64,000 nucleotides of DNA, from the NCBI GenBank assembly GCA_021802505.1, contig JAJZXE010000002.1:11770-75769 (forward strand), written 5' to 3'. The stretch is from Nanobdellota archaeon (GTDB lineage Archaea > Nanobdellota > Nanobdellia > Parvarchaeales > Parvarchaeaceae). The position numbers and the translations under genes were made by a program. The notes under the pieces were generated by a model. It searched no databases, was not told where the DNA came from, and saw only the letters and a list, made by a program, of their open reading frames with translations. Below, piece after piece: positions 318-52,900 of the stretch (the stretch's first letter is position 1; every line of letters starts with the position of its first letter).

Positions 318-1049
318 ATGGAAGAAATAGACAGTATCATTAAGCATTATGAAGGGAATTGGTATCACCCGTCGGAACAGCAGAAGAAGACCGTGGCTAT
401 GCTGAAAAAGCACGGTAAACCATTAATTAAAGAATTGGGAAGGACCCCGCTGCCGACAGAGTACGGCGGAGTGACATATCTGGTATTCGGGGATTATACC
501 ACCGGAAAAGAGCATGATGCAGTGGTCTTCGGAGATATCCGCCGTAAGAAAAAGACAGTGCCTCTGGTAAGGATACACTCCTCATGCAGGACCAGTGAAT
601 TATTTCATGCGGTGAACTGCGAATGCCGGCAGGAACTGGAACTGGCGATGAAAACCATGGAAAAAGAGAAGGCCGGAATAATCATTTACTTGAATCAGGA
701 AGGGGCAGGGAACGGCACGGCTGCAAAAGCCGCGGCTTACAATAATGTATTTACCTGGAAAAAAGGCAGGATAGTGAGTAAAAAGGACATCTATCAGGGC
801 TACCTAAATCTGGGTTATCCCCTGGAGAACAGGAACTTTGAGGTAGCCGCAGAAATATTGAAGTATCTGGGCTTTACATCCGTAAGGCTAATGACTAACA
901 ATCCAAAGAAGATAAGCGGGTTGGAATCACAGGGTATAACCGTCATACAGAGGGAGATACATGTCAAGCCCCTCAACAGAATTATGAAGAGGCATTTGAA
1001 AGCCAAACAGAAACTTATGAAGCACACTATAACTAAAAAAGATCTATAG
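318..1049 (+). CDS. ribA: GTP cyclohydrolase II (RibA family)
   Basis: 'RIHSSCRTSELFHAVNCECRQ' matches the GCHII zinc-binding C...CxC motif. 'YLNQEGAGNG', 'RNFEVAAEILKYLGF' and 'VRLMTNNPKKISGLESQGI' match conserved RibA blocks. The track start at 312 is TTG; ATG at 318 is preferred. Confidence 0.8.
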   Translation: MEEIDSIIKHYEGNWYHPSEQQKKTVAMLKKHGKPLIKELGRTPLPTEYGGVTYLVFGDYTTGKEHDAVVFGDIRRKKKTVPLVRIHSSCRTSELFHAVNCECRQELELAMKTMEKEKAGIIIYLNQEGAGNGTAAKAAAYNNVFTWKKGRIVSKKDIYQGYLNLGYPLENRNFEVAAEILKYLGFTSVRLMTNNPKKISGLESQGITVIQREIHVKPLNRIMKRHLKAKQKLMKHTITKKDL

Positions 1050-1279
1050 TCCCTGTTAAAAAACTTTTGTCAATATACTGGAATTTATCCAAGGATCGCA
1101 TTATTTTCCAGTTTTATAAACAACAATGCATTACATGAGTACTTTTTCAATAAAATTCACGGTTTATTGCCTGCAGATTGTTTTCAATGTCTTTATATAC
1201 TTAATATGCCTATATATATTATAAGTGTATGGTTAGTTTGTGTTCTTTAACGTTCCAAAATAATTCAGGCATTTAAGTT

Positions 1280-1558
1280 TTGATTATGAAAGTTACGCAT
1301 GTTAAAGGAAAGTTTTCTGTTATAACTCCTAACGGGGAATCGGAGCTGCTTTACATAGACAAAAACAACGGCTTTATCAGGATCTACCGTACATTCACAC
1401 CTGAACGGGACAGGGAGAGTGGTGTTGCAGAACAGCTCACACTAGCTGCGTTTAGTTTCGCCAGAAAAAATAAATTAAAGATAAAGCCGGACTGTCCGTT
1501 TATAGTTACATTCCTGGAGAAGAATAAAAAGTTTGAAAAACAGGCAATAAAAAACTAG
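1280..1558 (+). CDS. Small GNAT-like (YjdJ-type) acetyltransferase domain protein
   Basis: 92 aa. Its size and 'GESELLYIDKNNGFIRIYRTFTPERDRESGVAEQLTLAAFSFARKNKLKIKPDCPF' resemble single-domain GNAT proteins of about 90 aa. Weak call made by eye. Confidence 0.35.
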   Translation: MIMKVTHVKGKFSVITPNGESELLYIDKNNGFIRIYRTFTPERDRESGVAEQLTLAAFSFARKNKLKIKPDCPFIVTFLEKNKKFEKQAIKN

Positions 1559-1603
1559 AAACCGTCAAAAGCCCGTAAAATTTATATAAAAAATTCAGAG
1601 CGC

Positions 1604-2005
1604 TTACCTTGAGTTTTTTCTGAGCTCGTTCAGCATTTCTTCGAATTCTTTCCTTGAGATTTCTCCCTTTGCGTATCTCATCCTTAAAATCTCCTCCGCC
1701 TCACTGTGACTATACAAATCCCAGTTTCCAAGGCGGAAAGTACGTATATAAACCTTAGATCTAAAGGCCCAGCTGAAGACCCATATCAAAAACAGTATTC
1801 CTATCACTATTCCAAATATGCGCCAGAATACATTGGCAAGATATGGGTATGTTCCGAAGGGTATCGTTATTATGGCCACGAGACTGGAGAAAATCGCCGC
1901 TATCATGAATACAAAAAGCAGAAAGATAAAAAATATCCGAAGAGGCGCGCCGAAAAGATCAAACTCTCCGGGATTATTGCTTTTTTGGGATCTTTGGCCT
2001 TTCAT
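1604..2005 (-). CDS. Membrane protein with C-terminal SHOCT domain
   Basis: Two hydrophobic helices, then 'SEAEEILRMRYAKGEISRKEFEEMLNELRK', which matches the SHOCT short C-terminal motif. Confidence 0.55.
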   Translation of the reverse strand: MKGQRSQKSNNPGEFDLFGAPLRIFFIFLLFVFMIAAIFSSLVAIITIPFGTYPYLANVFWRIFGIVIGILFLIWVFSWAFRSKVYIRTFRLGNWDLYSHSEAEEILRMRYAKGEISRKEFEEMLNELRKNSR

Positions 2006-2073
2006 AATAATACAGTGGTTTATGTTGCCGGTAGATATAAAGATTTAAGTAAAGTATTTGATAATACTTTATT

Positions 2074-2598
2074 ATGCCCGCAGAAATTTACAGTTACATG
2101 CAAAAATACGGTAAAGATCTGAAAGAGGTGACTCTCTGCTATCTGGTGGATAAGAATAACAAAAAAGTTCTGGTAGCCATGAAGAAGAGAGGATTTGGAG
2201 TGGGAAAGTTAAACGGAGTGGGCGGAAAGCTTAAAGAGGGGGAAACCATAGAGCAGGCCATGCTGAGAGAGACTAAGGAGGAGATAACTGTCGATTTGAA
2301 AGAATATGAAAAGGCGGCCGTAATTGAATTTTACTTTAGGAACAATCCCGCAGATAAAAACATGAATCAGCGGGCTCACGTGTTTTTAGCCTATGACTGG
2401 GAGGGGGAACCACAGGAAACAGAGGAAATGAATCCATTATGGGTGGAATCAGATAAGATTCCGCTTGATAAGATGTGGGAGGATGACAGGTACTGGTTAC
2501 CTGGTATATTAAAAGGCAGAAAGATCAAAGCCGCATTTTTGTTTGATGAAAACCAGAAAATAACCGAAAGAGTCGTAGAAGAAGTAGATTTACTTTAG
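2074..2598 (+). CDS. Nudix hydrolase (MutT/NUDT1-like)
   Basis: Nudix box 'GKLNGVGGKLKEGETIEQAMLRETKEEI' fits GX5EX7REUXEEXGU. Confidence 0.8.
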   Translation: MPAEIYSYMQKYGKDLKEVTLCYLVDKNNKKVLVAMKKRGFGVGKLNGVGGKLKEGETIEQAMLRETKEEITVDLKEYEKAAVIEFYFRNNPADKNMNQRAHVFLAYDWEGEPQETEEMNPLWVESDKIPLDKMWEDDRYWLPGILKGRKIKAAFLFDENQKITERVVEEVDLL

Positions 2599-2785
2599 TG
2601 CATAAATCGCTGCATTTTAAAAGGTTTTAATGATTAACTGCAGAATCGTTCGGCGGTTGAACGGCAAATCCCATTATTTTCGGCAAACTAGCCGGAAACA
2701 CCTTTGTCTGTGCTTTTTTCATTCTTGATTTTAATGAATTTTGACGTGGAAAAGCTTTAATACCGGTTTAAATCATAGACCTTCA

Positions 2786-3514
2786 ATGAACAGGCATACT
2801 ATCAGAAGAACACTGGAGAATGTTTTGATTGCTTTATCCGATGACAACAGAAGCCTGATAAATCAGAGGCCTTACGAAGATTTGCCACCTTTGGATATAG
2901 AGGATGTAAACAGGATATATTCCGCAGTAGCATCCGTCTTTGGGGCAGATAATGTGCTTATATTCGGCGGAGCCGCGCTGCAAAGATACTGCCAGCACAA
3001 ACCGAAGGATGTAGACCTGATAGTTAACGGCGACATAGCTGCAAACATCGAAAACTTAAGCAGCAGGGGTTTTACCGGTGTAAATGAAAAAACGCTTAAA
3101 GTATTTTTTAATTCCAAGGTATATGAATCAGGGTACCCTATAAACGGCAATAAGATTAAAGTCGAGTATTACTCTCCCGAGGGATTATTGGGCAAAAATG
3201 ACGATTTTAGAGATGTGATGAAAATATCAAAGGAAAGCGATTACCGCGGTCTAAAGATACACTATGCGGATCCTTATACGTTAAGCATGCTCAAGTACAG
3301 AGCGTGGAAAAACCGGCTTGCAAACGGCAGGGCGGATAAGGATCTGATAGACTTGGAAAAGGCGGGAATATTCTACAATAAAACCAATGATCCGCAATAT
3401 CAAAAATTATTGGGGGCTTATACCCCTGGCATGTTTTCACGGTTAAAATCCATATTCAGCGAGACGGTTCATATTCTGCATCAGAACTACCTACGGCAGA
3501 AGCAGCGGGTTTGA
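2786..3514 (+). CDS. Putative nucleotidyltransferase-fold (Pol-beta superfamily) protein
   Basis: 'IFGGAALQRYCQHKPKDVDLIV' fits the NTase signature hGG-x12-DxD. The track start at 2741 is TTG; ATG at 2786 ('MNRHTIRR') is preferred. No other homology recognised. Confidence 0.4.
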   Translation: MNRHTIRRTLENVLIALSDDNRSLINQRPYEDLPPLDIEDVNRIYSAVASVFGADNVLIFGGAALQRYCQHKPKDVDLIVNGDIAANIENLSSRGFTGVNEKTLKVFFNSKVYESGYPINGNKIKVEYYSPEGLLGKNDDFRDVMKISKESDYRGLKIHYADPYTLSMLKYRAWKNRLANGRADKDLIDLEKAGIFYNKTNDPQYQKLLGAYTPGMFSRLKSIFSETVHILHQNYLRQKQRV

Positions 3515-3553
3515 TTGCAAATCGTTTATAAATAATTATGTTCTGGTAATTAA

Positions 3554-4078
3554 ATGCCCAGCGGTAAAAACCTTGAGGATATCATAGACAGTAAGCATGT
3601 TCAAAAAAAGGAAAAAGCCGGTTATAGTCTAAAAGACAGGGTAAAGAGATACTACACGGAGAATATCGGAAAATTCAGGCAGTATATTGCGCCATTAGCA
3701 GCGATTTCCATAGGGGTTGCAAACTGGAGCAAGGATTTTGCGGCTTCAAAAACAGTCAATCTTCCTTTAATCTATGAAAACACCCGAGTAAGCGGCACGA
3801 TGTGGTACCTGGAGGCTTTCCTGCAGGAGCTTGCCACTATGAGTATATTAGTCGCAACTGCAAAGGAGAAGAAAAAGATAGGGCTTTATGCTCTGGCTTA
3901 TGAAGCGGGAAGCATCATTAATTATTGTTTTTACAGTATGGCTATGAACGGCATTTATGCGAATTATTACGGCAGGATATGGAACGACATATTTTACTTT
4001 TTCCAGATACCGGTGTTTCTGCTTTCATTAAGGCACTATTACGGTGCAAAAAAGCGGGAAAAAAGGAAGCCGGTATAA
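3554..4078 (+). CDS. Hypothetical protein
   Basis: 174-aa ORF with a basic C-terminus. It lies 39 bp downstream of, and on the same strand as, the NTase-fold gene. No motif recognised. Confidence 0.3.
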   Translation: MPSGKNLEDIIDSKHVQKKEKAGYSLKDRVKRYYTENIGKFRQYIAPLAAISIGVANWSKDFAASKTVNLPLIYENTRVSGTMWYLEAFLQELATMSILVATAKEKKKIGLYALAYEAGSIINYCFYSMAMNGIYANYYGRIWNDIFYFFQIPVFLLSLRHYYGAKKREKRKPV

Positions 4079-4097
4079 AATGATGCTCTTTTGCAGG

Positions 4098-4748
4098 TTA
4101 ATTTAGATTGACTATGAATTCTCCGAGAACACCGGAGCCTATCCCGAGTGAATGATTCGGGCATTTAAGCATGATTCTGTTACCTAGGTAGTATTCGCCG
4201 GCATCAACCGTGATTGAATGCTTCTGTCCGCATAGCCTGCACCTTTCTACTGTAACGGTTATGTTCTTAAACTGAAACAGCTGGTTCAATGCATCGGTTA
4301 CATGCTTTATAGCTTCCAGGGCATGGAAGTCTTCAACCAGAGTGTCTTCATGCGTATAATTCCGAAGTGATTTAAGATACTGGAGGATTTCCTTGTCTTT
4401 TACCGGATTTTCACTGCAGTTTATTAGATCAAAGAGCCTCGCATACTCTAATTTGACCCTTTTGTCGGTGTTCTTTCCGTCTCTGTAGCTTATCTCCCTG
4501 ATCCCTTTTTTTGACATGTACTCTTTCAATCCCCGTTCTAAGCATCTCACCGCCAATGACAGTGCGGCATCTGGGCAGCCGTAAAGAAAAGAATGTATGG
4601 CTTCGGAATACAAACTCTTGAATTCTTTTTTAATGCCTATAAAATCATACGGGTATATAACTCTTGTCTGGATGAGCATGTTTAGTCTGCTGTTGTAATT
4701 GTCTATGTTCACCAGATTCGGCACCGAAGGAAAGGATATCTCTTCCAT
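4098..4748 (-). CDS. Hypothetical protein with C-terminal Cys/His cluster
   Basis: 216 aa. C-terminal 'CRLCGQKHSITVDAGEYYLGNRIMLKCPNH' looks like a Zn-ribbon. Nothing else recognised. Confidence 0.35.
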   Translation of the reverse strand: MEEISFPSVPNLVNIDNYNSRLNMLIQTRVIYPYDFIGIKKEFKSLYSEAIHSFLYGCPDAALSLAVRCLERGLKEYMSKKGIREISYRDGKNTDKRVKLEYARLFDLINCSENPVKDKEILQYLKSLRNYTHEDTLVEDFHALEAIKHVTDALNQLFQFKNITVTVERCRLCGQKHSITVDAGEYYLGNRIMLKCPNHSLGIGSGVLGEFIVNLN

Positions 4749-4793
4749 TTATCATATTGGTCAGTCCTGTATATTAACTGTTCTCCAGCGGTT

Positions 4794-6149
4794 TCAGCCG
4801 CATTTTATAGTCCTTTGGATGTATAACGTTGAAAGGTTAAACTCATTTTCCGTTTGTGAGGGAAAATCCGCGCCGAATTCAAAACATACAGTAGAATTTT
4901 GGATGTACATGCTCATTGCAGCGGAATAAAAAGGGATGCGGGTGAGATTGAAGAGCTTTTCACTGTCATACACAACTTCTATCCCGACATGATTTGACAT
5001 ATTGATCAGTAGAAGCTGGGACGGAAGGTATCTGCCGACGGTTTTATTATAGGTTGCATTCAACAGCATATATTTAGTTATGTTAATCGGAAAACTAGAA
5101 TTTACAGTGGTTATGTTGAATTTTTTAAGGTATGTTCCCAATTGTGAAGGGGACAGATGGAATATGCTGATATTGCTGGAGGAGTTCAGATGTTCTTTTC
5201 CGGTTATTATAAAGTAGAACTGGTTCAGCTGCGGAAAGTAGCTTTCGAGGTATTTTCTTGCGTTTTCAGAGCTGTTCTGCTCCAGATATTTCGTTATGTT
5301 TATAGATTTTAAGTCGGAGGCAAATTCAGGTGAATTGCCGATTGCAGAGACTAGAAATGAGTTCGGTATCAAAAGATTCAGGCTGGTATTGTCAAGTATC
5401 TTACTTATGTTTTGTGTGCTCATGTTCGAGGAATTACTCAGAGAAAGCAATGAACTCGCGGAGGATAAGATCCCGTTCAGGTTGATATTGATAAGGTAAT
5501 TCGGATAGCTGTAGTTTAAGACTGCAGAACGGAATGTGCTGTGGCCGAAAGAACCGGTGAAAACCGAAAAGATGGACTGCGTCCCGACGCTGGAGAGAGA
5601 AACTGATTGGACGGGAAACAAAGTGTACAGGACTGCAAACAGGATAAATATAAAAAAGCCCGCGGCGAGGAAGGAGCCGACACCCGGTAAGACTTCATCC
5701 AACCCGCCGGTCATATCTTTCCAGCCGATTAAAACGGAAACTATAACGCCGATGTAAAGCAAGACAATGATATAAAAAACGTATCCTATTATCGTCAGGT
5801 TTAACGATATCAGTGCAAGGAAAAGTCCTGCAAGGGAAGAAGTGGCAAGCAGTATCGCCAGTATACCTCCTTTTTTCTCATTATGTTTAAGCCATTTGCC
5901 GCTTGTGTGGAATAATCTGCTTACAACGATCAGTGAAATCCCGGATATCATGCCAAACGCCGATAAGAAAGCTACATCCGACGGCAATAAAACGGAAGAT
6001 ACGGCTTTTGGCAGGAATGCATCGATCACATTGACCCCCAGGAAGATAAGCAGCCCTATGAAAAACAGAATCAGCCCGGCTGCAAGGGACAAAAAACCGA
6101 TTATAGATAAAATAAGACGGGCCGAACCCGCATTCGAACCTGTATCCAT
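4794..6149 (-). CDS. Polytopic membrane protein with large N-glycosylation-rich extracellular domain
   Basis: About 6 N-terminal TM helices, then a roughly 250-aa C-terminal domain dense in NxS/T sequons (NYS, NSS, NMS, NIS, NTS, NIT, NAT and others). Confidence 0.5.
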   Translation of the reverse strand: MDTGSNAGSARLILSIIGFLSLAAGLILFFIGLLIFLGVNVIDAFLPKAVSSVLLPSDVAFLSAFGMISGISLIVVSRLFHTSGKWLKHNEKKGGILAILLATSSLAGLFLALISLNLTIIGYVFYIIVLLYIGVIVSVLIGWKDMTGGLDEVLPGVGSFLAAGFFIFILFAVLYTLFPVQSVSLSSVGTQSIFSVFTGSFGHSTFRSAVLNYSYPNYLININLNGILSSASSLLSLSNSSNMSTQNISKILDNTSLNLLIPNSFLVSAIGNSPEFASDLKSINITKYLEQNSSENARKYLESYFPQLNQFYFIITGKEHLNSSSNISIFHLSPSQLGTYLKKFNITTVNSSFPINITKYMLLNATYNKTVGRYLPSQLLLINMSNHVGIEVVYDSEKLFNLTRIPFYSAAMSMYIQNSTVCFEFGADFPSQTENEFNLSTLYIQRTIKCG

Positions 6150-6172
6150 AAAATTATATGTTCTGATTAATA

Positions 6173-6682
6173 TTAATAGCCTGAGATGAGCCGTTTTATC
6201 TCTTTTTGAAGGTAATCATCGCTGTCCAATGCATCTAATCCTTTTATCAGCCTGAGAGCATTGATCTTTTGCAATGCCTCTTTCTCTAGATTTGAATGCA
6301 ATTTTTTATGTTTTCTTCTGCGGTAATCTTTGCTGCTTTCGATTAGATCTCCTCTTTCTATGTGCAGCAGTTCATGCATGATTACGCTTTTAACCAGTTC
6401 TTCTCTTAAATCGGTGTCAGTAACTCTGAGAAAAATGCTGCTTATCCGTATATAGAACTCCTTTTTTACGATTTTTCTGCTTATCTTTGTTGCTTTTCTG
6501 CGTCTGAAAAGGCCGCGGGCTCTGCTTGTTTTTGTTATTTGCAGGTCGGCGTTGACCCTTCCGAGTACGTTTCTTGGAAGATCCGAATAATTTATGCGGA
6601 TGTAGGCGCCCCTGAACGGCTTGAATACCTTCAGACAGTCCTTAAGGAACAATAGGCACTCGTCTTCTCCGCTTATTTCCAT
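6173..6682 (-). CDS. HEXXH zinc metallopeptidase-like protein (DUF45/SprT/WLM-like)
   Basis: 'VIMHELLHIERGD' is a HExxH motif, followed by a downstream His/Glu-rich segment. Basic N-terminal half. 169 aa. Confidence 0.5.
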   Translation of the reverse strand: MEISGEDECLLFLKDCLKVFKPFRGAYIRINYSDLPRNVLGRVNADLQITKTSRARGLFRRRKATKISRKIVKKEFYIRISSIFLRVTDTDLREELVKSVIMHELLHIERGDLIESSKDYRRRKHKKLHSNLEKEALQKINALRLIKGLDALDSDDYLQKEIKRLISGY

Positions 6683-6692
6683 CCAAAATCAG

Positions 6693-7067
6693 CTATGAAT
6701 ACTTACTATTTTCCGAATTTCCGGCATTTATCCTGCTCTTAAATTCTAGAAACTCGCTGCGAAACCCACTCATTTTGCAGGTAGGGTAATAAACAATAGC
6801 GGATCCCGCTATTTTTGTTTCCACATAGTCTTTGTCGATCAGGGATTTTAATCCGAAACTTATTGAATTTGGACTGATGTCACGGCCATATAAATTGCTG
6901 CATTCCTTTTTTATCCGGTACCAGTCAATGCCCTCTTTGCCTTCGGTCTTTGCCGTGTACAAAGTATACGCGATGATATAGCTGACAGCAGTCCGGCCGA
7001 GTTCTTTATTCTTAACCACAAACCCACGTATTATTGATTCCAAATCCGAATTTTTATCGAGCGCCAT
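6693..7067 (-). CDS. Putative winged-helix DNA-binding protein
   Basis: 124 aa. 'GRTAVSYIIAYTLYTAKTEGKEGIDWYRIKKECSNLYGRDISPNSISFGLKSLIDKDYVE' resembles a wHTH of PadR/MarR/TrmB type. It lies 10 bp upstream of the HEXXH gene on the same strand. Confidence 0.35.
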   Translation of the reverse strand: MALDKNSDLESIIRGFVVKNKELGRTAVSYIIAYTLYTAKTEGKEGIDWYRIKKECSNLYGRDISPNSISFGLKSLIDKDYVETKIAGSAIVYYPTCKMSGFRSEFLEFKSRINAGNSENSKYS

Positions 7068-7156
7068 ACAGTTAATGTACTCGCTGCAAACTTAAATATT
7101 AAGTGAATTAAACGATTGAAGAAAGGATATTTAAGTTATAATTATTAATATATCAA

Positions 7157-11167: not shown

Positions 11168-11722
11168 CTATTTTCTGAGCCGTACAGCCCACGCCGCTAA
11201 TTTTTCAACCAGATCCTTTATTAAGGTCACGGTATCCTCATCGATAAACAAGCCCTTTTCCACTTTTTCGCCCGCGCCTCCGATGAAGACCTGCGGTCTC
11301 TCCAGGGGATGAGCATTCAAAAAAGAGAATATCTGCCGTAGATGATATTGTGCAACCGCCGTCCCTATTATGGCGCCGCCGCTCGCACCTATCGTTGCAA
11401 CCGGCTTATCATCAAAGGAATTGTTGCCGTATGGCCTGGAAGCCCAGTCTATCGCATTCTTTAATACTCCAGGAATCGATCTGTTGTATTCCGGTGTTGC
11501 AATCAGTATTGCGTCCGCCCCCGTTAGGGCGTTTTTAAAGTTTCTCACGCTTTCCGGCATGCTGCCCTCTTCGTCCTGGTTGTAGAGAGGTATGCCGTTT
11601 AAATCGAGTACGTTTATTTCTATGTTTTCAGGTGCGTATTTCTTTGCCGTATTTATTATTGCCTTGTTGAAGGAATCCTGTCTCAGGCTGCCGGCAAATG
11701 CAGCTATGACGATTTTTTCCAT
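11168..11722 (-). CDS. NAD(P)H-dependent FMN reductase (SsuE/ArsH-like flavodoxin fold)
   Basis: 'KIVIAAFAGSLRQDSFN...', 'ADAILIATPEYNRSIPGVLKNAIDWASRP' and 'ATIGASGG' are typical NADPH-dependent FMN reductase blocks. Confidence 0.85.
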   Translation of the reverse strand: MEKIVIAAFAGSLRQDSFNKAIINTAKKYAPENIEINVLDLNGIPLYNQDEEGSMPESVRNFKNALTGADAILIATPEYNRSIPGVLKNAIDWASRPYGNNSFDDKPVATIGASGGAIIGTAVAQYHLRQIFSFLNAHPLERPQVFIGGAGEKVEKGLFIDEDTVTLIKDLVEKLAAWAVRLRK

Positions 11723-14128: not shown

Positions 14129-14689
14129 ATGAGCCTGGACTCCCTGGTAGACGATAAAAGTGAAGCGTTACCGGGCGATAAAAATATCAGATACTATTTT
14201 AGGAAGATTTATCTGGAGATTAAAAATTTTTATAAAACGAATCTTTCGGTTAAATTTAAACTGCTCTACGAAAGCGCTGCAGTATTATCCGACAGGCTGC
14301 TTACTGTTTTCGGCATAGATTACCGGGGCGGGCAGGAGGCGAATCCCATCATGGCTAAACTGTTCAATTACATCGGGATGATACCGACTGCGATAGGCTC
14401 ATACCTGGCTGCAAACATATTTTTTTATGTATTTTCCAAAAAGCTTCACAGCAAGGTAGGGCTGCAGAACAGAGAAATGCTGGGAGGCATTTATTTGGGC
14501 CTGGCGGGAGCCGAGTCCCTTGTATCGCTGCATAATTACCTTACCATTAACAACTACAATGACATAATCGCAAATATGAGTTATACCCAGGTACTTTTAC
14601 CAGTAAGTTTGATAGTGGCTGCACCTTTTCTTTATTATTTTTCAAAAAATTATCTTAGAAATAAGCGTGAGGAAAATACAGTCAACTAA
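14129..14689 (+). CDS. Hypothetical membrane protein
   Basis: The track ORF starts at a TTG inside the MFS gene. ATG at 14129 ('MSLDSLVDD') avoids that overlap. 3-4 TM helices. Confidence 0.35.
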   Translation: MSLDSLVDDKSEALPGDKNIRYYFRKIYLEIKNFYKTNLSVKFKLLYESAAVLSDRLLTVFGIDYRGGQEANPIMAKLFNYIGMIPTAIGSYLAANIFFYVFSKKLHSKVGLQNREMLGGIYLGLAGAESLVSLHNYLTINNYNDIIANMSYTQVLLPVSLIVAAPFLYYFSKNYLRNKREENTVN

Positions 14690-15555
14690 TCTACATAAAA
14701 TTCAAGCGAGAATATCTTCATTCTCTCATTTCTTTCCACAGGTTTCAGTCTCGGCATGTATTTTCTTATTACCTTCACTTCGGGTTCCTTGAATCCGTCA
14801 ACGACTGCAATATATCCTCTGTTATTTACCGCTGAAACTGTTGAAGAATTGCCGCATGATGATAATACCTGCAGATCAAGATTGTTTATGCCGTGTTCTT
14901 TTAATATGCCTGCATCCGCACAGATTTCTACGGAGGTTTTTATCCCGTTAAAATCAATTATCGGGTCTTTCCCGTAGGATAGGGAATAATCCGGATCCTT
15001 CGATGTCTCCGAGGGATAAAGCATTAAACTGCCCTCTAAATTGAACTTGGATCCGAGGCCATCGTTAAATTTATACACTGCCTTAAGCACTTTACCATCT
15101 TTTATTACCGGCATAACATTATAAAGTATCCTGTCCTTGTCATAGAACATGGCTGTACCAGGGTAAATCAACATCCCGGAGTTTTTGCTCGCGCTGGCGA
15201 CAGCTGTTAATATCTTTTCAAATTCTTTTTTTGAGTGCGGAATATACGGATAATCGTTAAATTTATCAGATTCCATATCCGCCTTTTCAATCAGTATCTT
15301 TTTTGCATCCCTGGGTGCATATTCTATATAATCTGGCGCATTGAATAGGATATCAATCACCTTTGAGATCTTTTTGCCTTTTATCATGCCTTTCGAGAAT
15401 ACTCCGGGTGGACAGGTAAGACTCCATTCCGGGCCTATCAGTACATCTATTCCCCTTTCTTTTGCATATTTTATGTTTTCTATGACCTCATACGGACTTC
15501 CGTATTCCTGTGTTTCCAGGTTGGTCATTGCACCTAAAAGCATTTCTAATCTCAT
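14686..15555 (-). CDS. Carbon-nitrogen hydrolase (nitrilase superfamily)-like protein, paralog 1
   Basis: 'DVLIGPEW' (catalytic Glu, hhhPE), 'SVEICADAG' (candidate catalytic Cys), 'NNLDLQVLSSCG'. Clear paralog of 27982-28773. Confidence 0.5.
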   Translation of the reverse strand: MRLEMLLGAMTNLETQEYGSPYEVIENIKYAKERGIDVLIGPEWSLTCPPGVFSKGMIKGKKISKVIDILFNAPDYIEYAPRDAKKILIEKADMESDKFNDYPYIPHSKKEFEKILTAVASASKNSGMLIYPGTAMFYDKDRILYNVMPVIKDGKVLKAVYKFNDGLGSKFNLEGSLMLYPSETSKDPDYSLSYGKDPIIDFNGIKTSVEICADAGILKEHGINNLDLQVLSSCGNSSTVSAVNNRGYIAVVDGFKEPEVKVIRKYMPRLKPVERNERMKIFSLEFYVD

Positions 15556-15611
15556 TTTGTTTATTAGAAAGTAGATAATATTAATAGTTTTTCTTTAAAT
15601 CAATGACAGCT

Positions 15612-16253
15612 TTAAGGAGGAGCGGCTAAATGCGCAGGAACTGCAACTCCACCTATATAGGCCGCGAGCAGCGAACCCAGTGTTATAAAGAGAAGGAATA
15701 GGACGATAAATATTATATAATTTCTATTCAGAGGTTTATTGCTCCCATTGCTTCTATATCTGTCCATAATTAATGTAGTAGGATATGCAAATATGCCTGC
15801 TAGACCGAAAGCTGTATAAAGCCCCAACAATGCGAGCGGGGAATTCGTGTAACCTAGGTTATATCCCGACACGCCGTATTCTATCAGAACCAATCCGGCA
15901 AATAACGCCATCAAACCGACATACTGCAGCTTCTGGTTGTATTTGACAGATAAGACAAACCCTAAGGAGATTATTCCCAATAGAATGTACGGATCATAGA
16001 AAAGCAGATTATATGCACCCGGTAAACTCCAGGTAATCTCTCCATAGAAACCCATTACAAGTATGAACACGGTAATAGCGGCAACCATATATATGGAACC
16101 CTGGAGATGAGATTCTATGCTCACTTTTGAATTGGATTTATTTACGTACCTCGCTCTGTAATCCCTGTATATTGCAAGAACCACATAATCCATCAAAAAT
16201 CCTAGAAATGCTACTGTAAACAATTCCAAAGCCAACTCATCTACAAAACCCAT
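15612..16253 (-). CDS. Polytopic membrane protein (6-7 TM)
   Basis: Hydrophobic throughout. Sits immediately downstream of the cytochrome b-like gene. Confidence 0.4.
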   Translation of the reverse strand: MGFVDELALELFTVAFLGFLMDYVVLAIYRDYRARYVNKSNSKVSIESHLQGSIYMVAAITVFILVMGFYGEITWSLPGAYNLLFYDPYILLGIISLGFVLSVKYNQKLQYVGLMALFAGLVLIEYGVSGYNLGYTNSPLALLGLYTAFGLAGIFAYPTTLIMDRYRSNGSNKPLNRNYIIFIVLFLLFITLGSLLAAYIGGVAVPAHLAAPP

Positions 16254-16305
16254 AATTATTACGACTTTTATAACGTTATATAGTTATGCTATCCTTAGGG
16301 TTAGC

Positions 16306-17748
16306 CTATTTCTTTGTCCTGCGCATCTCCGGATTCGTATACCTGTTCCAGAACAATTTATATAATTTAAGTTTATCCGGTAATCTGTTCAGATATGGAA
16401 TGAACGGGAAAAGCAGAAGGACGAAAAACACCAACAAAGCTACGGAACCGTTGTAGAGATCGGTCCACCACGGTATGTTCGCCGTTTCTATTTCAAGCAG
16501 GTTATACGGGATCAGCCAGTACTGTATCGACCATGGCGGAGCCCCGACCCTGAGCATTCCAAACTGTGCGGTCCTCAAGCCATAATGTGTAGCCGCGGTC
16601 GTTAAAGCGCCTGTATCATACAGAAATCTGAGAACATAAGTTTCATCCAGTCCGCTAGCGCTTTCATTCTGTACAACAAACTGGTATTCTCCGGATTCCG
16701 CCATTTGGGTAAGTTCTGCCGTCGCAACTAACAGGGGATTATTGGAATTCATTGCGTTTGCAACGGAGCCGTTGTTTTCAAAATAGGAATACGCCTGTGC
16801 AAAATCAAGTTTCTGCTGCGAGGCGTTTTCAGCGGATAAAACCGCGAGTTCATCCGTTTTGTTTGCGGACTGGATATAAAAGGAATAAGGTACGGAAAAA
16901 TAAACGGATCTCGTGCTGAAAGTATAAGGATCTATGGTGTCCAGGTATGTTGCCGTGCCCGATGAGAAATTGTATTCCTGCAGTAATGTCGCCGCGGTAT
17001 TCGAAGGGTTTGAATCTGCGGCCTGGCTTATCGTAAGCGGCGCTATATACGGAGAGCTGAATACAAATGCGAATACCATTACTATTATAAATATATACAC
17101 CATCCTTCTGTACATTTTTTTATGGTCCGCTTTCACCATCTTATACGGAATGTCTTTTCTATAAGGTTTGCTCAGTCCGTCTTTTTTAACGAGAGAATAA
17201 TGGAGAAAGATAAGCAATAACAGCATAATGGGTATGATCGCTACATGCCATCCTAAAACTGCGCCCTGATTCAACGGATTTACCCAGAAACCCAGGCCGA
17301 ATCCGTTCCACAGGTCAGCGCCCGCCTTGTCATTCCACTGCGAAAGCAGTCCGCCCTGGACTCCCACCCCGAATGCAAATTCAAGAAGAACGAGCATCAA
17401 TAAGACACTGCCTATCATCCAAACCAGTTTTTTCTTTTTAAACGCAGACGTCGAAAAATTCACAAATAAATGTATAAACATCAGGGTCACAAACGCCTCT
17501 GCCGCCCACAGGTGGATACTCCTGAAAAGAGTACCGACAGCGGTTGTATCCCACCAGTACGGGCCAAAGATAAGCATAACCATTCCTGTAAGAGCAAGTA
17601 TCACAAACAATTCCAGAAGATATATCCCTATGGTGAAAAAGAAGCTGTTTCCGTAGGAAGGGACGTATTTTATGTACTGATCCTGCATCAGACCGATAAT
17701 CGGCTTAAAAAACGCCTTTATTCCCTTTTCATCGTCATTCATATTCAT
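16306..17748 (-). CDS. Cytochrome b-like di-heme membrane protein with an expanded glycosylated ef loop
   Basis: 'FVILALTGMVML' resembles cyt b 'QIxTG'. Helix B is 'RSIHLWAAEAFVTLMFIHLF' (H-x13-H). Helix D is 'GWHVAIIPIMLLLLIFLHYS' (H-x14-H, b6-like spacing). After helix E comes a roughly 190-aa Ser/Thr/Asn-rich segment with many NxS/T sequons, then 'IPWWTD' (a PEWY-like position), then a final TM helix. Confidence 0.55.
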   Translation of the reverse strand: MNMNDDEKGIKAFFKPIIGLMQDQYIKYVPSYGNSFFFTIGIYLLELFVILALTGMVMLIFGPYWWDTTAVGTLFRSIHLWAAEAFVTLMFIHLFVNFSTSAFKKKKLVWMIGSVLLMLVLLEFAFGVGVQGGLLSQWNDKAGADLWNGFGLGFWVNPLNQGAVLGWHVAIIPIMLLLLIFLHYSLVKKDGLSKPYRKDIPYKMVKADHKKMYRRMVYIFIIVMVFAFVFSSPYIAPLTISQAADSNPSNTAATLLQEYNFSSGTATYLDTIDPYTFSTRSVYFSVPYSFYIQSANKTDELAVLSAENASQQKLDFAQAYSYFENNGSVANAMNSNNPLLVATAELTQMAESGEYQFVVQNESASGLDETYVLRFLYDTGALTTAATHYGLRTAQFGMLRVGAPPWSIQYWLIPYNLLEIETANIPWWTDLYNGSVALLVFFVLLLFPFIPYLNRLPDKLKLYKLFWNRYTNPEMRRTKK

Positions 17749-17783
17749 ATCTCTGTTTCATTATTTTTATAAAATACTGTAAC

Positions 17784-18140
17784 TCAATGGTTATTACCAT
17801 TCGGTCCCTGTTCGCATTCCCCGCAGGGCTTGATCTCCGCTACTCTGCCTTTACAATTGGCAGTTTTGAAGGATTCAAATTCTGATAACAGCTTGATTCC
17901 GCTTTCCGTAACGTTGTATTCGCTTCTCTTTAGTTTGCCGTCATAATATATTTTTTTTGTGATAAGCTCTCTCTTTATGAGGTCATTCAGTGCTTTATTC
18001 AGCGTTTTCGGATATATATTGACGTTTAAACCCAGTAACTTATCAAAATTTATGTTCTTATTGTTGTTTATCTCTTCAAGTATGGAAGCGTCCCATTTCT
18101 TTCCGAGCACGTTTAAGAGATCTATAGTGCTGCATGTCAT
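17784..18140 (-). CDS. HxlR-family winged-helix transcriptional regulator
   Basis: 'CSTIDLLNVLGKKWDASILEEI...FDKLL...NIYPKTLNKALNDLIKRELITKK...RSEYNVTESGIKL' follows the HxlR pattern (C..L..LG.KW...IL, then L...L..L...GLI.R, then the Y.LT..G block). Confidence 0.7.
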   Translation of the reverse strand: MTCSTIDLLNVLGKKWDASILEEINNNKNINFDKLLGLNVNIYPKTLNKALNDLIKRELITKKIYYDGKLKRSEYNVTESGIKLLSEFESFKTANCKGRVAEIKPCGECEQGPNGNNH

Positions 18141-18172
18141 AACTATCCATTGTTCTTTTTATTTTAATGCCT

Positions 18173-19066
18173 TTAATCCGTCTTTTCTTCCTTGAAATTG
18201 TAATTATTTATCTTGTCCTCGCTTTTCTTGTGCTGTTTGGATATGGGCTCGGTGTAATATTTCTCCTCCAGATCAGACAGCAAGGATAGGTCTTCTCTGC
18301 TTAAATCCAAGGCCGCCGCGGCTATATCCTCTTTCATGTGCTCCATATTGCTCGCTTTTGGAATCGGGAATGTATTCTCTTTATGCAGGAGCCAGCTCAA
18401 CGAAACCTGCGCGGGAGTCGCTGAATATCTTTCCGCTACCTTTTTAAGGTCGGAAAGAAGTGCGGTATTGCTGAAAATTTTACCGTGAGACAGCGGGCTG
18501 TAGGCTATTACGGCGATGCCATTGTCTTTACAGTAGTCGAATAATCCGCTTTTTTCAATGTCCCTGGTGATTATGCTGTATTCCACCTGGTTCGAAGAGA
18601 TTTCATACTTGGACATTGCTGCCTGGGCTTCTTTTGTTTCTTCCAGTGAAAAATTACTTATCCCGATGTGCCTTATCTTTCCGTCTTCGACGAGCTTTTC
18701 CATGGCCCGCATTGTTTCTTTTATCGGAATGGACTTGCTCGGCCAATGCAGCTGATAAAGATCAAGGTAATCCGTTCCCAGGTTTTTAAGGCTGTTTTCG
18801 CACGCGTTTATAACATCGTCATATTTGAAATGTGTAGGCCAGACTTTGCTTGCTATAAAAAGTTTCTCCCTATCGTAGCCTTCTATTGATTCCTTAACAA
18901 CCGGTTCGGTACCATACATTTCCGCGGTGTCTATGAAATTAATGCCGTTGTCTACCGCATATCTTATCGCTCTTACGTTTTCTTCCCTGTTGCTGCTGAG
19001 TTCCCACGTGCCTACTCCCATTACGGACAATTGTCTTTTGGTCTTATTGAATTCCTTCATTTCCAT
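18173..19066 (-). CDS. Aldo/keto reductase
   Basis: 'INFIDTAEMYGTE', 'YLDLYQLHWP' and 'IRHIGISNF' are canonical AKR blocks. Confidence 0.9.
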   Translation of the reverse strand: MEMKEFNKTKRQLSVMGVGTWELSSNREENVRAIRYAVDNGINFIDTAEMYGTEPVVKESIEGYDREKLFIASKVWPTHFKYDDVINACENSLKNLGTDYLDLYQLHWPSKSIPIKETMRAMEKLVEDGKIRHIGISNFSLEETKEAQAAMSKYEISSNQVEYSIITRDIEKSGLFDYCKDNGIAVIAYSPLSHGKIFSNTALLSDLKKVAERYSATPAQVSLSWLLHKENTFPIPKASNMEHMKEDIAAAALDLSREDLSLLSDLEEKYYTEPISKQHKKSEDKINNYNFKEEKTD

Positions 19067-19113
19067 ATTACCGTTAAAAAGGTGATTATATTTATAAATA
19101 TCAGGCGGGTAAC

Positions 19114-19701
19114 TCAGCCCAAATCGCTTATTATCTCGTCTGTCGTTAAAACATCAAAAAGCTTTTTCATGTTCGCAGTGGATCTTTCATGCGCTTCTTT
19201 ATCGCTTGAAGAAGAGGCATCTGAGGCTACAACTGTATAAAAACCCCTGTTGGAGGAGTCTCTGGCGGTTGATTCGACGCCTACCTCGGTGGCTATTCCC
19301 GCTATGATCAGTGTTTCTATTCCGGCATTCCTTGCCATCAATTCAAAATTCGTGCCGATGAAAATACTTGCCGTATTTTTATTTATCACTATCTCGTTTT
19401 TATCCGGAGGTATTTCGAGTTCAAACATCTCCGCCGGCAGCCGGGAAAGATCGAATTTCAGTTTACCCAAAGAGTATTTTCTGGCCGGAGATTCAAATTC
19501 CTGCGGCAGGGGTGTTATCTTTGTGAAAAATACGGGTATTTTTTTACTCCTTGCGGTGTTGATGAGATTATTCATGTTTTTAAGAAATTCCTCTTTATTG
19601 TATATACTGTTAACAAGCATTTTCTGCACATCCCACACTATCAAGGCGGTGTGCTCTGCTTTCAGTATCTCATTCATTTTGGTGTAGACTTTCCTTTCCA
19701 T
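19114..19701 (-). CDS. Isochorismatase-family cysteine hydrolase
   Basis: 'TALIVWDVQ' and 'IETLIIAGIATEVGVESTARDSSNRGF' (catalytic Cys-to-Ala/Thr-type block) match the isochorismatase-like fold. Confidence 0.85.
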   Translation of the reverse strand: MERKVYTKMNEILKAEHTALIVWDVQKMLVNSIYNKEEFLKNMNNLINTARSKKIPVFFTKITPLPQEFESPARKYSLGKLKFDLSRLPAEMFELEIPPDKNEIVINKNTASIFIGTNFELMARNAGIETLIIAGIATEVGVESTARDSSNRGFYTVVASDASSSSDKEAHERSTANMKKLFDVLTTDEIISDLG

Positions 19702-49939: not shown

Positions 49940-52900
49940 CTAGGAAACGCTGCTGAAAGTCACGGATGGCATCACTCCTGCTGGAGGATAGGCACGGGTG
50001 CGAACCCAATAGACATTTAGGTTGTAAGAAGTAGAAAACGTTGTTTGTGCAGGGTTAAGATAATAAGACACTGTTACATAAAGAGGCGTAGCAGGAACAT
50101 CGGTTGTTGTACTCCCCCAATTTGTATATCCATATTGAACTGATGTGGAACCGTTGTCAGGATACAATACTCCAAAAATATGATAATTACTATCGCTTGT
50201 TATTTGTGAAGTATCAAAATAGTTAGCAGCTGAAGTAGTCGTAGTTTCGGCTGTTATCGTAGAGTGGGCTTGTACATTTCCCGCCCAACCTACAGCGTTT
50301 TCGTTTTCACCATTGTCAGCGTGCCAAGCAGTATTATTTAAAGCAGTTAATGCGTCGGGCACTATTCTAAAATTAGTAGTGTCGAAAGAATTAGTATTGG
50401 CATAACTTTCCAATATTTGCGCCCCGCTTACAGTATAAGAAGCAGATGAGAGATAAACATAACTTCCTGCAGCTGCATTATAAGGAACCACTTCTGTAAG
50501 TCCATTATCAATGGTCAGTGTTCCGCCGCTATTACCGCTGTTCCATTTAGTCGTGTTAAGGCTTGTCCCTGCGAAGTTGTCATAGAAATTGAATACATTA
50601 GCCCCGTCATCATACTCACCGTAATTGGGAGAAAGTGTGGGGGCTTCTCCTGTGGTCTTGTTGTTGAAAAGATTAGTAGAATTGGAGGCAAATCCTATAT
50701 ATATTGTAATCGATGAAGAAGCAGGTATACTTCCGGTTTTGATCCAATAAAGGGCATTTTTGGAATAAGAGTAGTTCTCAAGCCATGATGGTATTAAAGT
50801 TCCATTGGGATAAAAGAATTCGATATTCTGGAAATTGGGAGCTGCATAACCTTTATACACTGAAGACGTCATATTTATCATCTGCTGGAACGGCTGAGGT
50901 GTAGCTGCAGACTGAGAATTGTTTATTGCGATTTTAGCATAATTTTCTACGGATGCTGGTATAACAGCCTGCCCAAAACTTATGGAAGGCATCACTCCGC
51001 TAGGTGGATAAGCGCGGACGCGAACCCAGTTTGCATGAATTATATTATTCGGGGAGCCCGGCCCGGGATTTCCAAGCGTCAAATAAAAAACAGGATTATT
51101 GTAGTTAGTTTCGGATGCAGTCATATTGTTATCGACGGAATAGGTGGTAGTTAGTATACTGGCGGTGATTGACGAGGTATTTTTTATGATGACTTGTGCT
51201 ATATAGGTTCCATTTGTACTCACGTTCTGTGCACCATTGAGGAGTGCCACCTTTCCATTATAATACCATCCACCTCTGGAATTTGCCCAAGCATTGACAT
51301 CAAATTGGTCACTGGTTGCACTTGGTGTTATGTAATTAGAACCGCCTATCATTACCATATTCGTAGAATTGATAATATCCCCCAGACTTTCAGCAATAAA
51401 AGGCGCACTGAATGTTTGATTGCTGTAAGTTATACCATCGTACGCAAAAGACCCTGCTGTGCCACCAGGTGTAATTGTAACTCCATTATTTACAGCGACA
51501 GTTACCCCACTTGGTCCGCTATTCCATCCGGCCTTTAATGTAGTCCCGGCAAAATTGTCATAGAAATTGAATACGTTGGCACCGTCATCATACTCTGCAT
51601 ATGTTGGAGATAGCTGAGGAGCCTCACCGGTAGTTTTGTTATTGAAAAGATCTGTTGAATTGTGAACCAGGCCGATTACTATGTTTGTTATGGTGGTGTT
51701 GGCTGGTATTCCATCTGGCAATTTAATCCAGAACAAAGCATACTTTGAAGTGTAATTCTCAAGCCATGAGTTTATCTTTTTATCACTGGTTTTGTTGTAA
51801 AACACCACATTCTGGAACTGGTGTCCACTGCTTAAGTTTATGTACTGCTTGTAATTTGAATAGGATAGGTTCACCAGCTCCTGGAATGGTGCTGGAGTGG
51901 CGGTTGACTGTACATTGGTTATATTTATCGGCAGGTAATAATCCAAAAGCGTAGATAAGCTAGGATTAATTACCCTCTTTATAGTTACAGAATTTGAGGT
52001 ATAATTTGCATTTCCACTGGTATTCAGTACAATCGTGTAGTTATTTGCATACTTTCCTAAGTTTATCGTCGTTGTCGTTGTTATTGTTTTATTAAGAACT
52101 CCGTTTATGTATAACGTTGCCGTTACCTGGCTGTTAATAGTAGATATTGCTGCAGTCACAGTAAGATTTGTTCCATTGTATGTGTAGTTTACACCCGGTT
52201 TTGAGGTCAAACTGAGAGAAGGTACCGCTTTGTTTATCGTCTCATAATAAGATATGTTGTTTATACTACTTGAATTTGATCCTCCAATAACTCTAATCTT
52301 GCCGATGGATGGACTGCTGGCATAAGTCGAAATATTCCTGGAAAATGACGTTAAAGACGTAACTGAGTTATTTATTATATCCCATAGTTTTACATAATTG
52401 TTATTGGATTCAACGGTAAAATTGCTTGTTTGACCGTAAATTGCAGTCACATTATTGTTTGAAAGTCCGTTTATAAACAGATTTATCGGATTTGTAACGA
52501 GATTGTTGAATTTTACAGATGGTATTATTCCGTCCGGAGGAGCAGTTGGAGAGTAATAACTTACTGCGTTGTTTGACCACAAAGCGGTATACGCTCCGCC
52601 TCCGTCCTCGTAATAATCCATTTCTATCCTAACGGTTCCTAAACTAGATTCTACCCCGCTGTAGGCTGTAAAAGGCTCTGTATGCCACTGGCTTACAAGA
52701 TTATTCGGATTTGAGGTTCCTCCTAACCAATAAGCGCCGTTTCCCTGTCCTGCCGTTGTAGAGTAACCCAGGGCTATTCCGTCATCGGAGCCGACGTAAA
52801 AAGTAGTTGCCGAATTGACCTCCGCCCATCCTATTGCTTTTATTATCCATGAATTGCCGGTGTTTGATACGGGCGGATTCGGATATGCCGCTCCGCCGCT

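Follow-up and report, generated by a model that had tools for sequence, protein, structure and literature searches.

In papers on ARMAN and other DPANN genomes, a cytochrome b gene is entered time and again as 'one subunit of complex III', and its lack of a Rieske protein is treated as a puzzle. Most genomes of Micrarchaeota and Parvarchaeota lack the iron-sulphur (Rieske) subunit (PMC5864196), a lone 'MQCRB' subunit was reported in Parvarchaeum and Acidifodinimicrobium (PMC10134863), and Micrarchaeum harzensis was described as having 'one subunit of the bc1 complex' (PMC8975820). The Mancarchaeum Mia14 genome was described as devoid of complexes I-IV and of quinone and haem biosynthesis, keeping only cytochrome bd and ATP synthase (PMC5498576). 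Here, we analysed a gene of this kind in a stretch of 64,000 nucleotides (the window) from a Nanobdellota archaeon of the Parvarchaeaceae (contig JAJZXE010000002.1, positions 11,770 to 75,769), with a G+C content of about 40 % throughout. The gene is routinely annotated as 'cytochrome b N-terminal domain-containing protein' or 'MQCRB', and its orphan status has already been remarked on. Our analysis suggests that its product is probably a two-haem cytochrome b of the b6 type that stands alone, works without a Rieske protein and acts as a transmembrane electron-transfer module, and that its C-terminal half is a conserved unit of its own, in which two transmembrane (TM) helices enclose a large ectodomain.

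The gene, its b6-type domain and the codons of the predicted haem ligands are located as follows:

16306..17748, minus strand: fused gene for a cytochrome b6-like domain and a TM-ectodomain-TM module, 480 amino acids (aa); stop codon at 16306-16308
17134..17748, minus strand: cytochrome b6-type four-helix (A-D) di-haem domain, residues 1-205, recognised by PF13631, by cytochrome b6 1q90_B and by Foldseek
17512..17514, minus strand: codon of His79, predicted P-side (bL) haem ligand in helix B, aligned with the first helix-B ligand His of b6 (motif RSIHRW)
17470..17472, minus strand: codon of His93, predicted N-side (bH) haem ligand in helix B (H-x13-H)
17245..17247, minus strand: codon of His168, predicted P-side haem ligand in helix D
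17200..17202, minus strand: codon of His183, predicted N-side haem ligand in helix D (H-x14-H, the spacing of b6 and of Firmicutes)

Full-length orthologues of the 480-aa protein were found at 52-99 % identity in Parvarchaeota and Micrarchaeota. The nearest relatives (75-99 % identity) belong to Candidatus Parvarchaeum (ARMAN-4/5) and to Parvarchaeota or "Nanoarchaeota" metagenome-assembled genomes (MAGs), and the Micrarchaeota orthologues, including those of Mancarchaeum acidiphilum and Micrarchaeum A_DKE, come next (52-67 %). These relatives mark the window as DNA of a Parvarchaeum-like DPANN archaeon of acid mine drainage. We aligned 26 and 80 of these sequences and counted the invariance of residues in the set of 80. 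The window protein matched the Pfam family PF13631 (Cytochrom_B_N_2) with 58.4 bits against a cut-off of 27, and its score of 22.9 bits against PF00033 lay just under the threshold of 27.2; all 25 archaeal family members that were scanned matched both families. In NCBIfam, the weak matches, all below threshold, were to cytochrome b6, actinobacterial QcrB, ExtP and SoxC. When the 80-sequence profile was compared with all sequences in the PDB, the top match was cytochrome b6 of Chlamydomonas (1q90_B, E = 9e-14), which was covered from residue 13 to residue 214. The match ends at the C-terminus of b6, where 'KQGISGP' stands opposite 'KKGLSKP', and it is at the corresponding motif, 'KDGLSKP', that the N-terminal domain of the window protein ends. 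The cysteine that serves haem cn/ci in b6 (Cys35), a residue expected only of the b6f and Firmicutes types, is opposite a near-invariant threonine, Thr39, and for this reason a covalently bound third haem is not expected.

The modelled structure agreed with these matches. An AlphaFold2 (AF2) model built from the 80-sequence alignment reached a predicted local distance difference test (pLDDT) score of 86.5 and a predicted template modelling (pTM) score of 0.83, with pLDDT of about 90 across helices A-D. In a Foldseek search of the full model against the PDB, the top 50 matches were all cytochrome b of bcc/bc1 complexes (best E = 3.7e-6), the TM-scores of about 0.4 reflecting a superposition of part of the chain, presumably its N-terminal half. 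The initial annotation had recognised a cytochrome b from a 'LALTG' turn and from the His pairs of helices B and D, and these readings were borne out. The turn was found at residues 51-55, with G55 invariant, and the four His residues (H79-x13-H93 and H168-x14-H183) were invariant in the 80 orthologues and aligned, one and all, with the haem ligands of 1q90_B in the profile alignment. Judged from sequence and modelled fold, a genuine cytochrome b domain of the b6 type, with two predicted haems, makes up the N-terminal half.

What follows helix D has no relative in Pfam, NCBIfam or the PDB. The parts of this module are:

17044..17124, minus strand: fifth TM helix, residues 209-235, at the position of helix E (hydropathy 217-235; AF2 helix 209-229)
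16462..17043, minus strand: conserved all-alpha ectodomain, residues 236-429 (AF2 helices, pLDDT mostly >90; no known relatives)
16390..16461, minus strand: sixth TM helix, residues 430-453, at the position of helix F (hydropathy 435-453; AF2 helix 430-445)
16309..16389, minus strand: basic cytoplasmic tail, residues 454-480 (PDKLKLYKLFWNRYT...), conserved, with Trp467 invariant

The hydropathy profile of the protein revealed six TM segments (residues 42-60, 78-98, 108-126, 164-182, 217-235 and 435-453), the last two of which are separated by 199 residues. The fifth TM helix, the long segment and the final TM helix were thus all found where the initial annotation had placed them. Lys and Arg number 11 in the 28-residue de loop and 9 in the 29-residue C-terminal tail, and only 6 in the whole 199-residue segment; by the positive-inside rule, this distribution places the segment outside the cell, as had been supposed, and the predicted location agrees with the topology expected of cytochrome b at the position of the ef loop. 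The segment had also been described as a Ser/Thr/Asn-rich, glycosylated insertion full of N-x-S/T sequons. Its composition is indeed biased (27 % Ser, Thr and Asn, and very poor in Lys and Arg), but it is not of low complexity: the mean column identity is 58-64 %, and both the full-length AF2 model and a separate model of residues 200-480 showed a compact, all-helical domain with pLDDT mostly >90. Conservation and these confident models rule out a low-complexity linker or glycan stalk. The five sequons in the ectodomain compare with 2.6 +/- 1.4 in composition-preserving shuffles (P = 0.09), which is not a significant excess, and only N260 and N326 are conserved sequon positions among the archaeal orthologues; in an excerpt of the alignment inspected by eye, uncounted, neither seemed conserved in bacterial sequences. 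Glycosylation is therefore possible but not indicated by the sequence.

Archaeal and bacterial modules (the latter are described below) share an 'APYxPPxT' motif after the first helix, 'ATY...PY', a GP turn, 'QWG' and 'PFIP'. Motifs found family-wide in the ectodomain are SSxTATY and [Y/W]W-x-x-PY (residues 410-415), and IPWW (residues 425-428) is variable. Asp430, at the start of the last helix, and Trp467 of the tail are invariant across archaea and bacteria, and His209, which precedes the fifth TM helix, is invariant in archaea only. Over the whole module, the residues invariant in both domains of life are Pro, Gly, D430 and W467 only. The alignment of archaeal and bacterial modules contained no conserved His, Cys or Met in the ectodomain, and the ectodomain therefore probably carries no redox cofactor. 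The module is not covered by any model in Pfam or NCBIfam, a Foldseek search of its own model against the PDB returned nothing below E = 1.5, and its profile gave only spurious weak matches to PDB sequences. The ectodomain is a conserved domain of its own, which is not described in the papers that we searched.

The initial annotation had viewed this segment as an insertion grafted into an otherwise canonical cytochrome b, with 'IPWWTD' standing where PEWY normally sits at the Qo site. The C-terminal cytochrome b family PF00032 matched none of 67 family members, even at E <= 10, and gave no match to the window protein at E <= 0.1. We also compared the module by hhalign with PetD sequences and with two Rhodobacter C-terminal halves, all verified against the PDB. 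With PetD alone, QYWL (residues 409-412) fell on PEWY and the last helix on helix F, at a probability of 1.9 %; with the Rhodobacter halves added, the register changed and the probability was 1 %. Because the registers were incompatible at probabilities of 1-2 %, we assigned no equivalent of PEWY, a motif that is itself absent from the window protein. The IPWWTD sequence was found at residues 425-430, but its IPWW part varies across the family (ISWW, FPNNSD and PSWTD in orthologues, IPPWST in bacteria) and hence cannot be equated with PEWY. Both hydropathy and the AF2 model gave two TM segments only after helix D, and helices G and H are absent. The lack of PF00032 matches and the hhalign results led us to reject the module as a homologue of the cytochrome b C-terminal domain or of subunit IV. 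In the aligned chains, the module occupies the positions of helices E and F, and homology to these helices cannot be shown. It is better viewed as a distinct, conserved module than as a graft; it lacks helices G and H and any PF00032 signal, and in bacteria it is encoded by a separate gene.

A phmmer search with residues 232-480 against 1.84 billion representative proteins yielded 32 matches. The fused form was found throughout Parvarchaeota and Micrarchaeota, and one bacterial protein among the 32 matches is also fused (P0145, 554 aa). Another protein, P0126 (982 aa), consists of the cytochrome b and the module, followed by an extra TM helix and a beta-propeller of about 480 residues with weak PQQ_2-type matches; this propeller would put a possible partner enzyme on the outer face. 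Stand-alone modules of 310-380 aa, in which the ectodomain is enclosed by two TM helices and a 'YRLIWRDYY' tail closes the chain, proved in a follow-up search to be common in Alicyclobacillus, Sulfoacidibacillus, Fodinisporobacter, Thermaerobacter, Peptococcaceae and assorted MAGs, and several of them carry the odd NCBI name 'cytochrome B6'. At all six bacterial loci, the module gene directly follows a b6-like gene of 201-214 aa (PF13631), the last bases of which it overlaps in most cases; the one b6-like partner that was read, that of locus L008, has the same His spacing as the archaeal protein. The fifth TM helix of the archaeal fused protein corresponds to the N-terminal TM helix of the separate second gene.

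As read from these sequences, either the archaeal gene arose by fusion or the bacterial pair by fission, and the junction is exactly the petB/petD split point. In evolution, the TM-ectodomain-TM unit is a module in its own right, joined to the b6-type domain in acidophilic DPANN archaea and encoded by a separate gene in Firmicutes-type bacteria. Neither this split bacterial counterpart nor the lack of a family model or structure for the module is described in the papers searched. As a separate observation, 28 of 120 bacterial modules (e.g. P0151-P0162; L008 7001-8086) have a conserved cytoplasmic four-Cys tail, C-x2-C-P-[LI]-x3-C-x2-E-F ... C-Y, a possible N-side Zn or Fe-S site that is absent from the archaeal fused proteins.

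The remark of the initial annotation that no Rieske gene lies in the window also held, and it could be extended to the flanking DNA of other genomes. A motif scan found no Rieske-type motif (CxH...CxxH) in the real open reading frames (ORFs) of the window and no CxxCH motif in any window ORF of at least 80 aa. We examined 80 archaeal genome loci, with a flank of up to 10 kb on each side of the cytochrome b gene. No credible Rieske motif was found within about 10 kb at any of the 80; the pattern matches that did occur were spurious, and none had the form CxHxGC...CxCH. The Pfam-annotated archaeal neighbourhoods contained no Rieske protein, no cytochrome c and no recurrent redox enzyme. Likewise, no gene for a Rieske protein, a cytochrome c or another redox enzyme was annotated within about 7-9 kb at the six bacterial loci, and no neighbour is common to the whole set; L008 and L092 have genes for two-component regulators upstream. 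Since no Rieske gene occurs within about 10 kb in any genome examined, the protein is probably not part of an ordinary respiratory complex III. Mia14, whose gene inventory is given above, encodes a member of the family (P0063) in its closed genome.

In the reading that we favour, the protein would serve as a transmembrane electron wire, in which electrons pass between haem bH and haem bL, linking the membrane or cytoplasmic side with the outer face, most probably in exchange with the quinone pool. The ectodomain would cap the P-side face, a place taken in bc complexes by the Rieske head and cytochrome c1/f, and a P-side site for a substrate or partner would probably be shaped by the ectodomain, the strongly conserved cd loop, the [Y/W]W-x-x-PY motif (W411/Y415) and D430. 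Such a protein would not be part of a Q-cycle enzyme of the bc1/b6f type; the first quinol electron needs a high-potential acceptor, and a Q cycle is therefore beyond a cytochrome b bundle on its own. A more specific version applies to DPANN archaea without complexes I-IV, where this b6-type protein, with a novel surface domain in the position of subunit IV, would be the sole transmembrane electron device besides cytochrome bd. The fused gene and the bacterial pair together would then stand for a hitherto overlooked, self-contained module of respiration or electron transfer. We put this version forward only tentatively, as a possibility we would not bet on; at the cell surface, its partners in electron exchange might, for example, be soluble iron or quinones taken from the host.

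Genes that recur around the cytochrome b gene offer a hint about its expression. In the window, the two that matter most here are:

17784..18140, minus strand: HxlR-type winged-helix regulator gene, 118 aa, 35 bp upstream of the cytochrome b gene and co-directional with it
11168-11722, minus strand: NAD(P)H-FMN reductase gene

The HxlR regulator (27.7 bits against PF01638) is the most recurrent neighbour and lies within 1.5 kb at 21 of the 80 archaeal loci, in both phyla, in tandem in Parvarchaeales and in tandem or divergently in eight Micrarchaeota. The regulator in the window has an N-terminal Cys3, presumably at the place where YodB-type regulators carry their redox-sensing Cys. A gene for an NAD(P)H-dependent FMN reductase (FMN_red) is found within 10 kb at 17 of the 80 loci; in L066 and L067 it immediately precedes the cytochrome b gene in the same direction, and at 14 further loci the distance is 1.5-4.6 kb. 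An aldo-keto reductase gene lies within 1.5 kb at 14 of the 80 loci, and an isochorismatase-family gene also recurs near the cytochrome b gene. The frequent pairing with HxlR genes (YodB-like, of the thiol-redox and quinone-sensing type) and with FMN reductase and aldo-keto reductase genes suggests that the cytochrome b may be expressed as part of a quinone or redox-stress response and not as a core respiratory complex. In the window itself, a minus-strand run (14686-19701) comprises genes for an isochorismatase-family protein, an aldo-keto reductase, the HxlR regulator, the cytochrome b, a DUF981 protein and a 289-aa, weakly CN-hydrolase-like protein. Two MFS transporter genes lie near this run, and the set resembles quinone or electrophile-stress genes. 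Each gene of the cluster has its own TATA-like box 20-35 nt upstream, and co-transcription is therefore not implied.

Several points weigh against the protein being a Rieske-independent electron conduit. The binding of haems, quinone and a partner is predicted, and so are the geometry of the haem pockets and the contact between ectodomain and cd loop. The associations with HxlR, FMN_red and aldo-keto reductase genes are in part inherited synteny among close Parvarchaeum genomes and are absent from most Micrarchaeota loci. A Rieske protein or another partner may be encoded elsewhere in the genome, beyond the 64-kb window and the 20-kb loci, and Rieske genes were found in two Micrarchaeota genomes and one Parvarchaeota genome (PMC5864196). 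The Mia14 protein would need cofactors acquired from the host.

The first alternative, which we regard as unlikely, is that the gene encodes the cytochrome b of a genuine, divergent Rieske/cytochrome b complex, whose Rieske protein and acceptor are encoded elsewhere and whose ectodomain is an elaborated, Qo-forming ef loop. This would suit the b6/QcrB-like N-terminal domain, the location of the module exactly at the position of subunit IV (helices E-F), the bacterial split at the petB/petD point, the aromatic W-motif and the invariant D430 before the last helix, which are loosely like PEWY, and the three genomes with Rieske genes just mentioned. The Alicyclobacillus-type hosts of the split form are aerobes that likely possess a separate canonical bc complex. 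However, no Rieske gene stands beside any of the 86 loci, and most ARMAN genomes, as well as the closed Mia14 genome, lack one (PMC5864196, PMC5498576). The absence of PF00032 from all 67 members, the hhalign probabilities of 1-2 %, the missing helices G and H and the lack of a c-type motif in the window speak against such a complex as well.

Even less probable, to our mind, is a quinone-independent exporter of reducing power resembling NOX or MsrQ. Here, haem bH would receive its electrons from an NAD(P)H-flavin reductase in the cytoplasm or, in certain bacteria, from a metal centre bound by the Cys residues of the tail, and the electrons would leave through haem bL to an acceptor outside the cell, e.g. 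soluble Fe(III), oxidised surface proteins or O2. Fre-MsrQ provides a precedent for this arrangement. The FMN_red gene directly upstream in L066 and L067, and within 10 kb at 17 of the 80 loci, the window included, would fit the scheme, as would the conserved four-Cys tail of the 28 bacterial modules. Furthermore, Mia14 has the protein and no quinone biosynthesis (PMC5498576), and among the hosts are many acidophiles of iron-rich habitats, several with the name ferrooxydans or ferrooxidans. On the other hand, the association with FMN_red is sparse and partly a matter of inherited synteny, the acceptors named are conjectural, and Peptococcaceae, Thermaerobacter and other MAGs without an obvious link to iron have members of the family as well. 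Moreover, the cytochrome b fold is otherwise known solely from quinone-reactive proteins. Finally, a non-catalytic or scavenging role, in which the protein captures or stores host haem or quinone or mediates contact with the host membrane in cofactor-auxotrophic DPANN archaea, is highly improbable: it would suit the dependence of ARMAN cells on Thermoplasmatales hosts, the lack of haem and quinone synthesis in Mia14 (PMC5498576) and a predicted surface-exposed ectodomain without redox ligands, but the same module is present in free-living, prototrophic Firmicutes, and the strict invariance of the four bis-His positions and of the cd loop is what would be expected of a working electron-transfer protein.

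The gene downstream of the cytochrome b gene had been proposed in the initial annotation to supply the missing C-terminal helices:

15612..16253, minus strand: DUF981 protein gene, 213 aa, 52 bp downstream of the cytochrome b gene and co-directional with it

Both ORFs are present as described, the 480-aa and the 213-aa frame running in the same direction. However, the proposal did not stand. The 213-aa protein, which has six predicted TM segments, matched DUF981 (PF06168) with 152.7 bits against a cut-off of 29, over positions 1-185 of the 186 in the profile, and a Pfam scan found no similarity to the C-terminal domain of cytochrome b. No relative of it was found in the PDB, DUF981 is not mentioned in the literature searched, and a homologue search returned 22 close relatives only. 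A DUF981 gene adjoins the cytochrome b gene at 18 of the 80 loci and is absent within 10 kb at the other 62. Fourteen of the 18 are tandem and downstream, in Parvarchaeales, where the L028 copy is only 28 % identical to that of the window; the remaining four, in the Micrarchaeum A_DKE clade, lie upstream in divergent orientation. In another archaeon (L091), a DUF981 gene occurs without a cytochrome b gene nearby. With adjacency at just 18 of 80 loci, we rejected DUF981 as a universal partner; it is at most accessory, and the two arrangements leave a looser functional link possible. On the ARMAN-5 scaffold GG745547.1 (L026, 11401-12056), the DUF981 gene is in two or three pieces. It is intact (213 aa) in the Logan assembly L005, whose context is identical, and the break in L026 is probably a sequencing or assembly frameshift.

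At 13 of the 80 loci, all in Micrarchaeota, a different protein of about 213 aa with 6-7 TM segments is encoded next to the cytochrome b gene, mostly immediately downstream. It belongs to no Pfam family, and hhalign detected no relation to DUF981 (0.3 % probability). The bacterial pair is accompanied by small TM peptides: peptides of 31-77 aa are encoded upstream at four of the six loci, and two-TM peptides of 68-86 aa downstream, also at four of the six. These small membrane peptides of the bacterial cassette are reminiscent of the small subunits of b6f. Examples of these features, by locus, are:

L075 11295-12020, L046 2897-3571 and L087 11405-12052: Micrarchaeota neighbour of about 213 aa (10 further loci)
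L008 8156-8362, L009 7984-8217, L010 10098-10331 and L092 7977-8237: downstream two-TM hairpin ORFs of 68-86 aa
L009 6275-6370, L092 6227-6334 and L093 6277-6393: upstream peptide ORFs of 31-38 aa

Elsewhere in the window, a single ORF of 4221 aa occupies 49940-62605 on the minus strand, its sole Pfam match being DUF2341 near the C-terminus (residues ~3924-4023). In L027, an ORF of similarly large size (>2250 aa, at 354-7130) is found close to the cytochrome b gene. The 4221-aa product is probably a giant surface protein of the nano-archaeon.

The gene in the window is probably not a remnant of a bc complex: it has a conserved and complete architecture, which is common to acidophilic archaea and Firmicutes in fused or split form. 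Should the protein indeed work as an electron conduit, models of the energy metabolism of host-dependent nano-archaea would have to change, and the evolution of cytochrome b would gain a Rieske-free branch. As bacterial homologues occur in culturable organisms (e.g. Alicyclobacillus), the proposal can be tested experimentally.

Four described systems invite comparison with this family. Cytochrome b558/566 (CbsA) of Sulfolobus is a b-type cytochrome of an acidophilic archaeon with a large outward domain rich in Ser, Thr and Asn, held by terminal TM anchors and encoded beside the polytopic CbsB. Its haem is bound in the ectodomain, and it is not known to have a four-helix bundle of the cytochrome b/b6 kind. 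In the window protein, the predicted haems lie in the membrane bundle, and the ectodomain is free of conserved His and Met, which speaks against a haem site of the CbsA kind. ExtP and the CbcB/CbcL-type proteins of Geobacter are di-haem b modules of quinol oxidoreductases, which sit in the membrane and need no Rieske protein. Of the NCBIfam matches of the bacterial split partner, ExtP is the best (65 bits), and it scores 35.8 bits with the window protein, against a cut-off of 290. Unlike the window family, which has no such partner, the ExtP and Cbc modules are encoded together with multi-haem c-type cytochromes as acceptors. CbcBA (bioRxiv 10.1101/2021.04.15.440034) was considered as a precedent with the same fold and rejected, since CbcB is HydC/PhsC-like and, together with CbcL, of a HydC/FdnI-like fold, and is not b6-like; the analogy is functional only.

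The long cytochromes b of archaea and Actinobacteria, SoxC and QcrB, resemble the window protein in being single chains, of about 480-550 aa, that have the N-terminal domain of cytochrome b. Actinobacterial QcrB supplied its top Foldseek matches, and both SoxC and QcrB gave weak NCBIfam matches. However, SoxC and QcrB keep the canonical helices E-H, with extensions behind them in the chain, and work with Rieske proteins, and the window protein reaches only 31-35 bits against family cut-offs of 500-740. A further parallel is the pair formed by PetB and PetD of b6f, or by QcrB and QcrC of Firmicutes. The window family differs from PetB/PetD in having no Rieske partner and Thr39 in place of the haem cn/ci Cys35; its module differs from PetD in having two TM helices, a helical ectodomain of about 195 residues instead of an ef loop of about 45, and no PEWY, helix G or PF00032 signal. 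What they have in common is the four-helix di-haem domain with its H-x13-H and H-x14-H pairs, for which cytochrome b6 is the best sequence match in the PDB and PRK03735 is among the best in NCBIfam. In bacteria, moreover, the family is encoded by two overlapping genes, divided at the same point as petB and petD, and the second part begins, like helix E, with a TM helix that runs from inside to outside.

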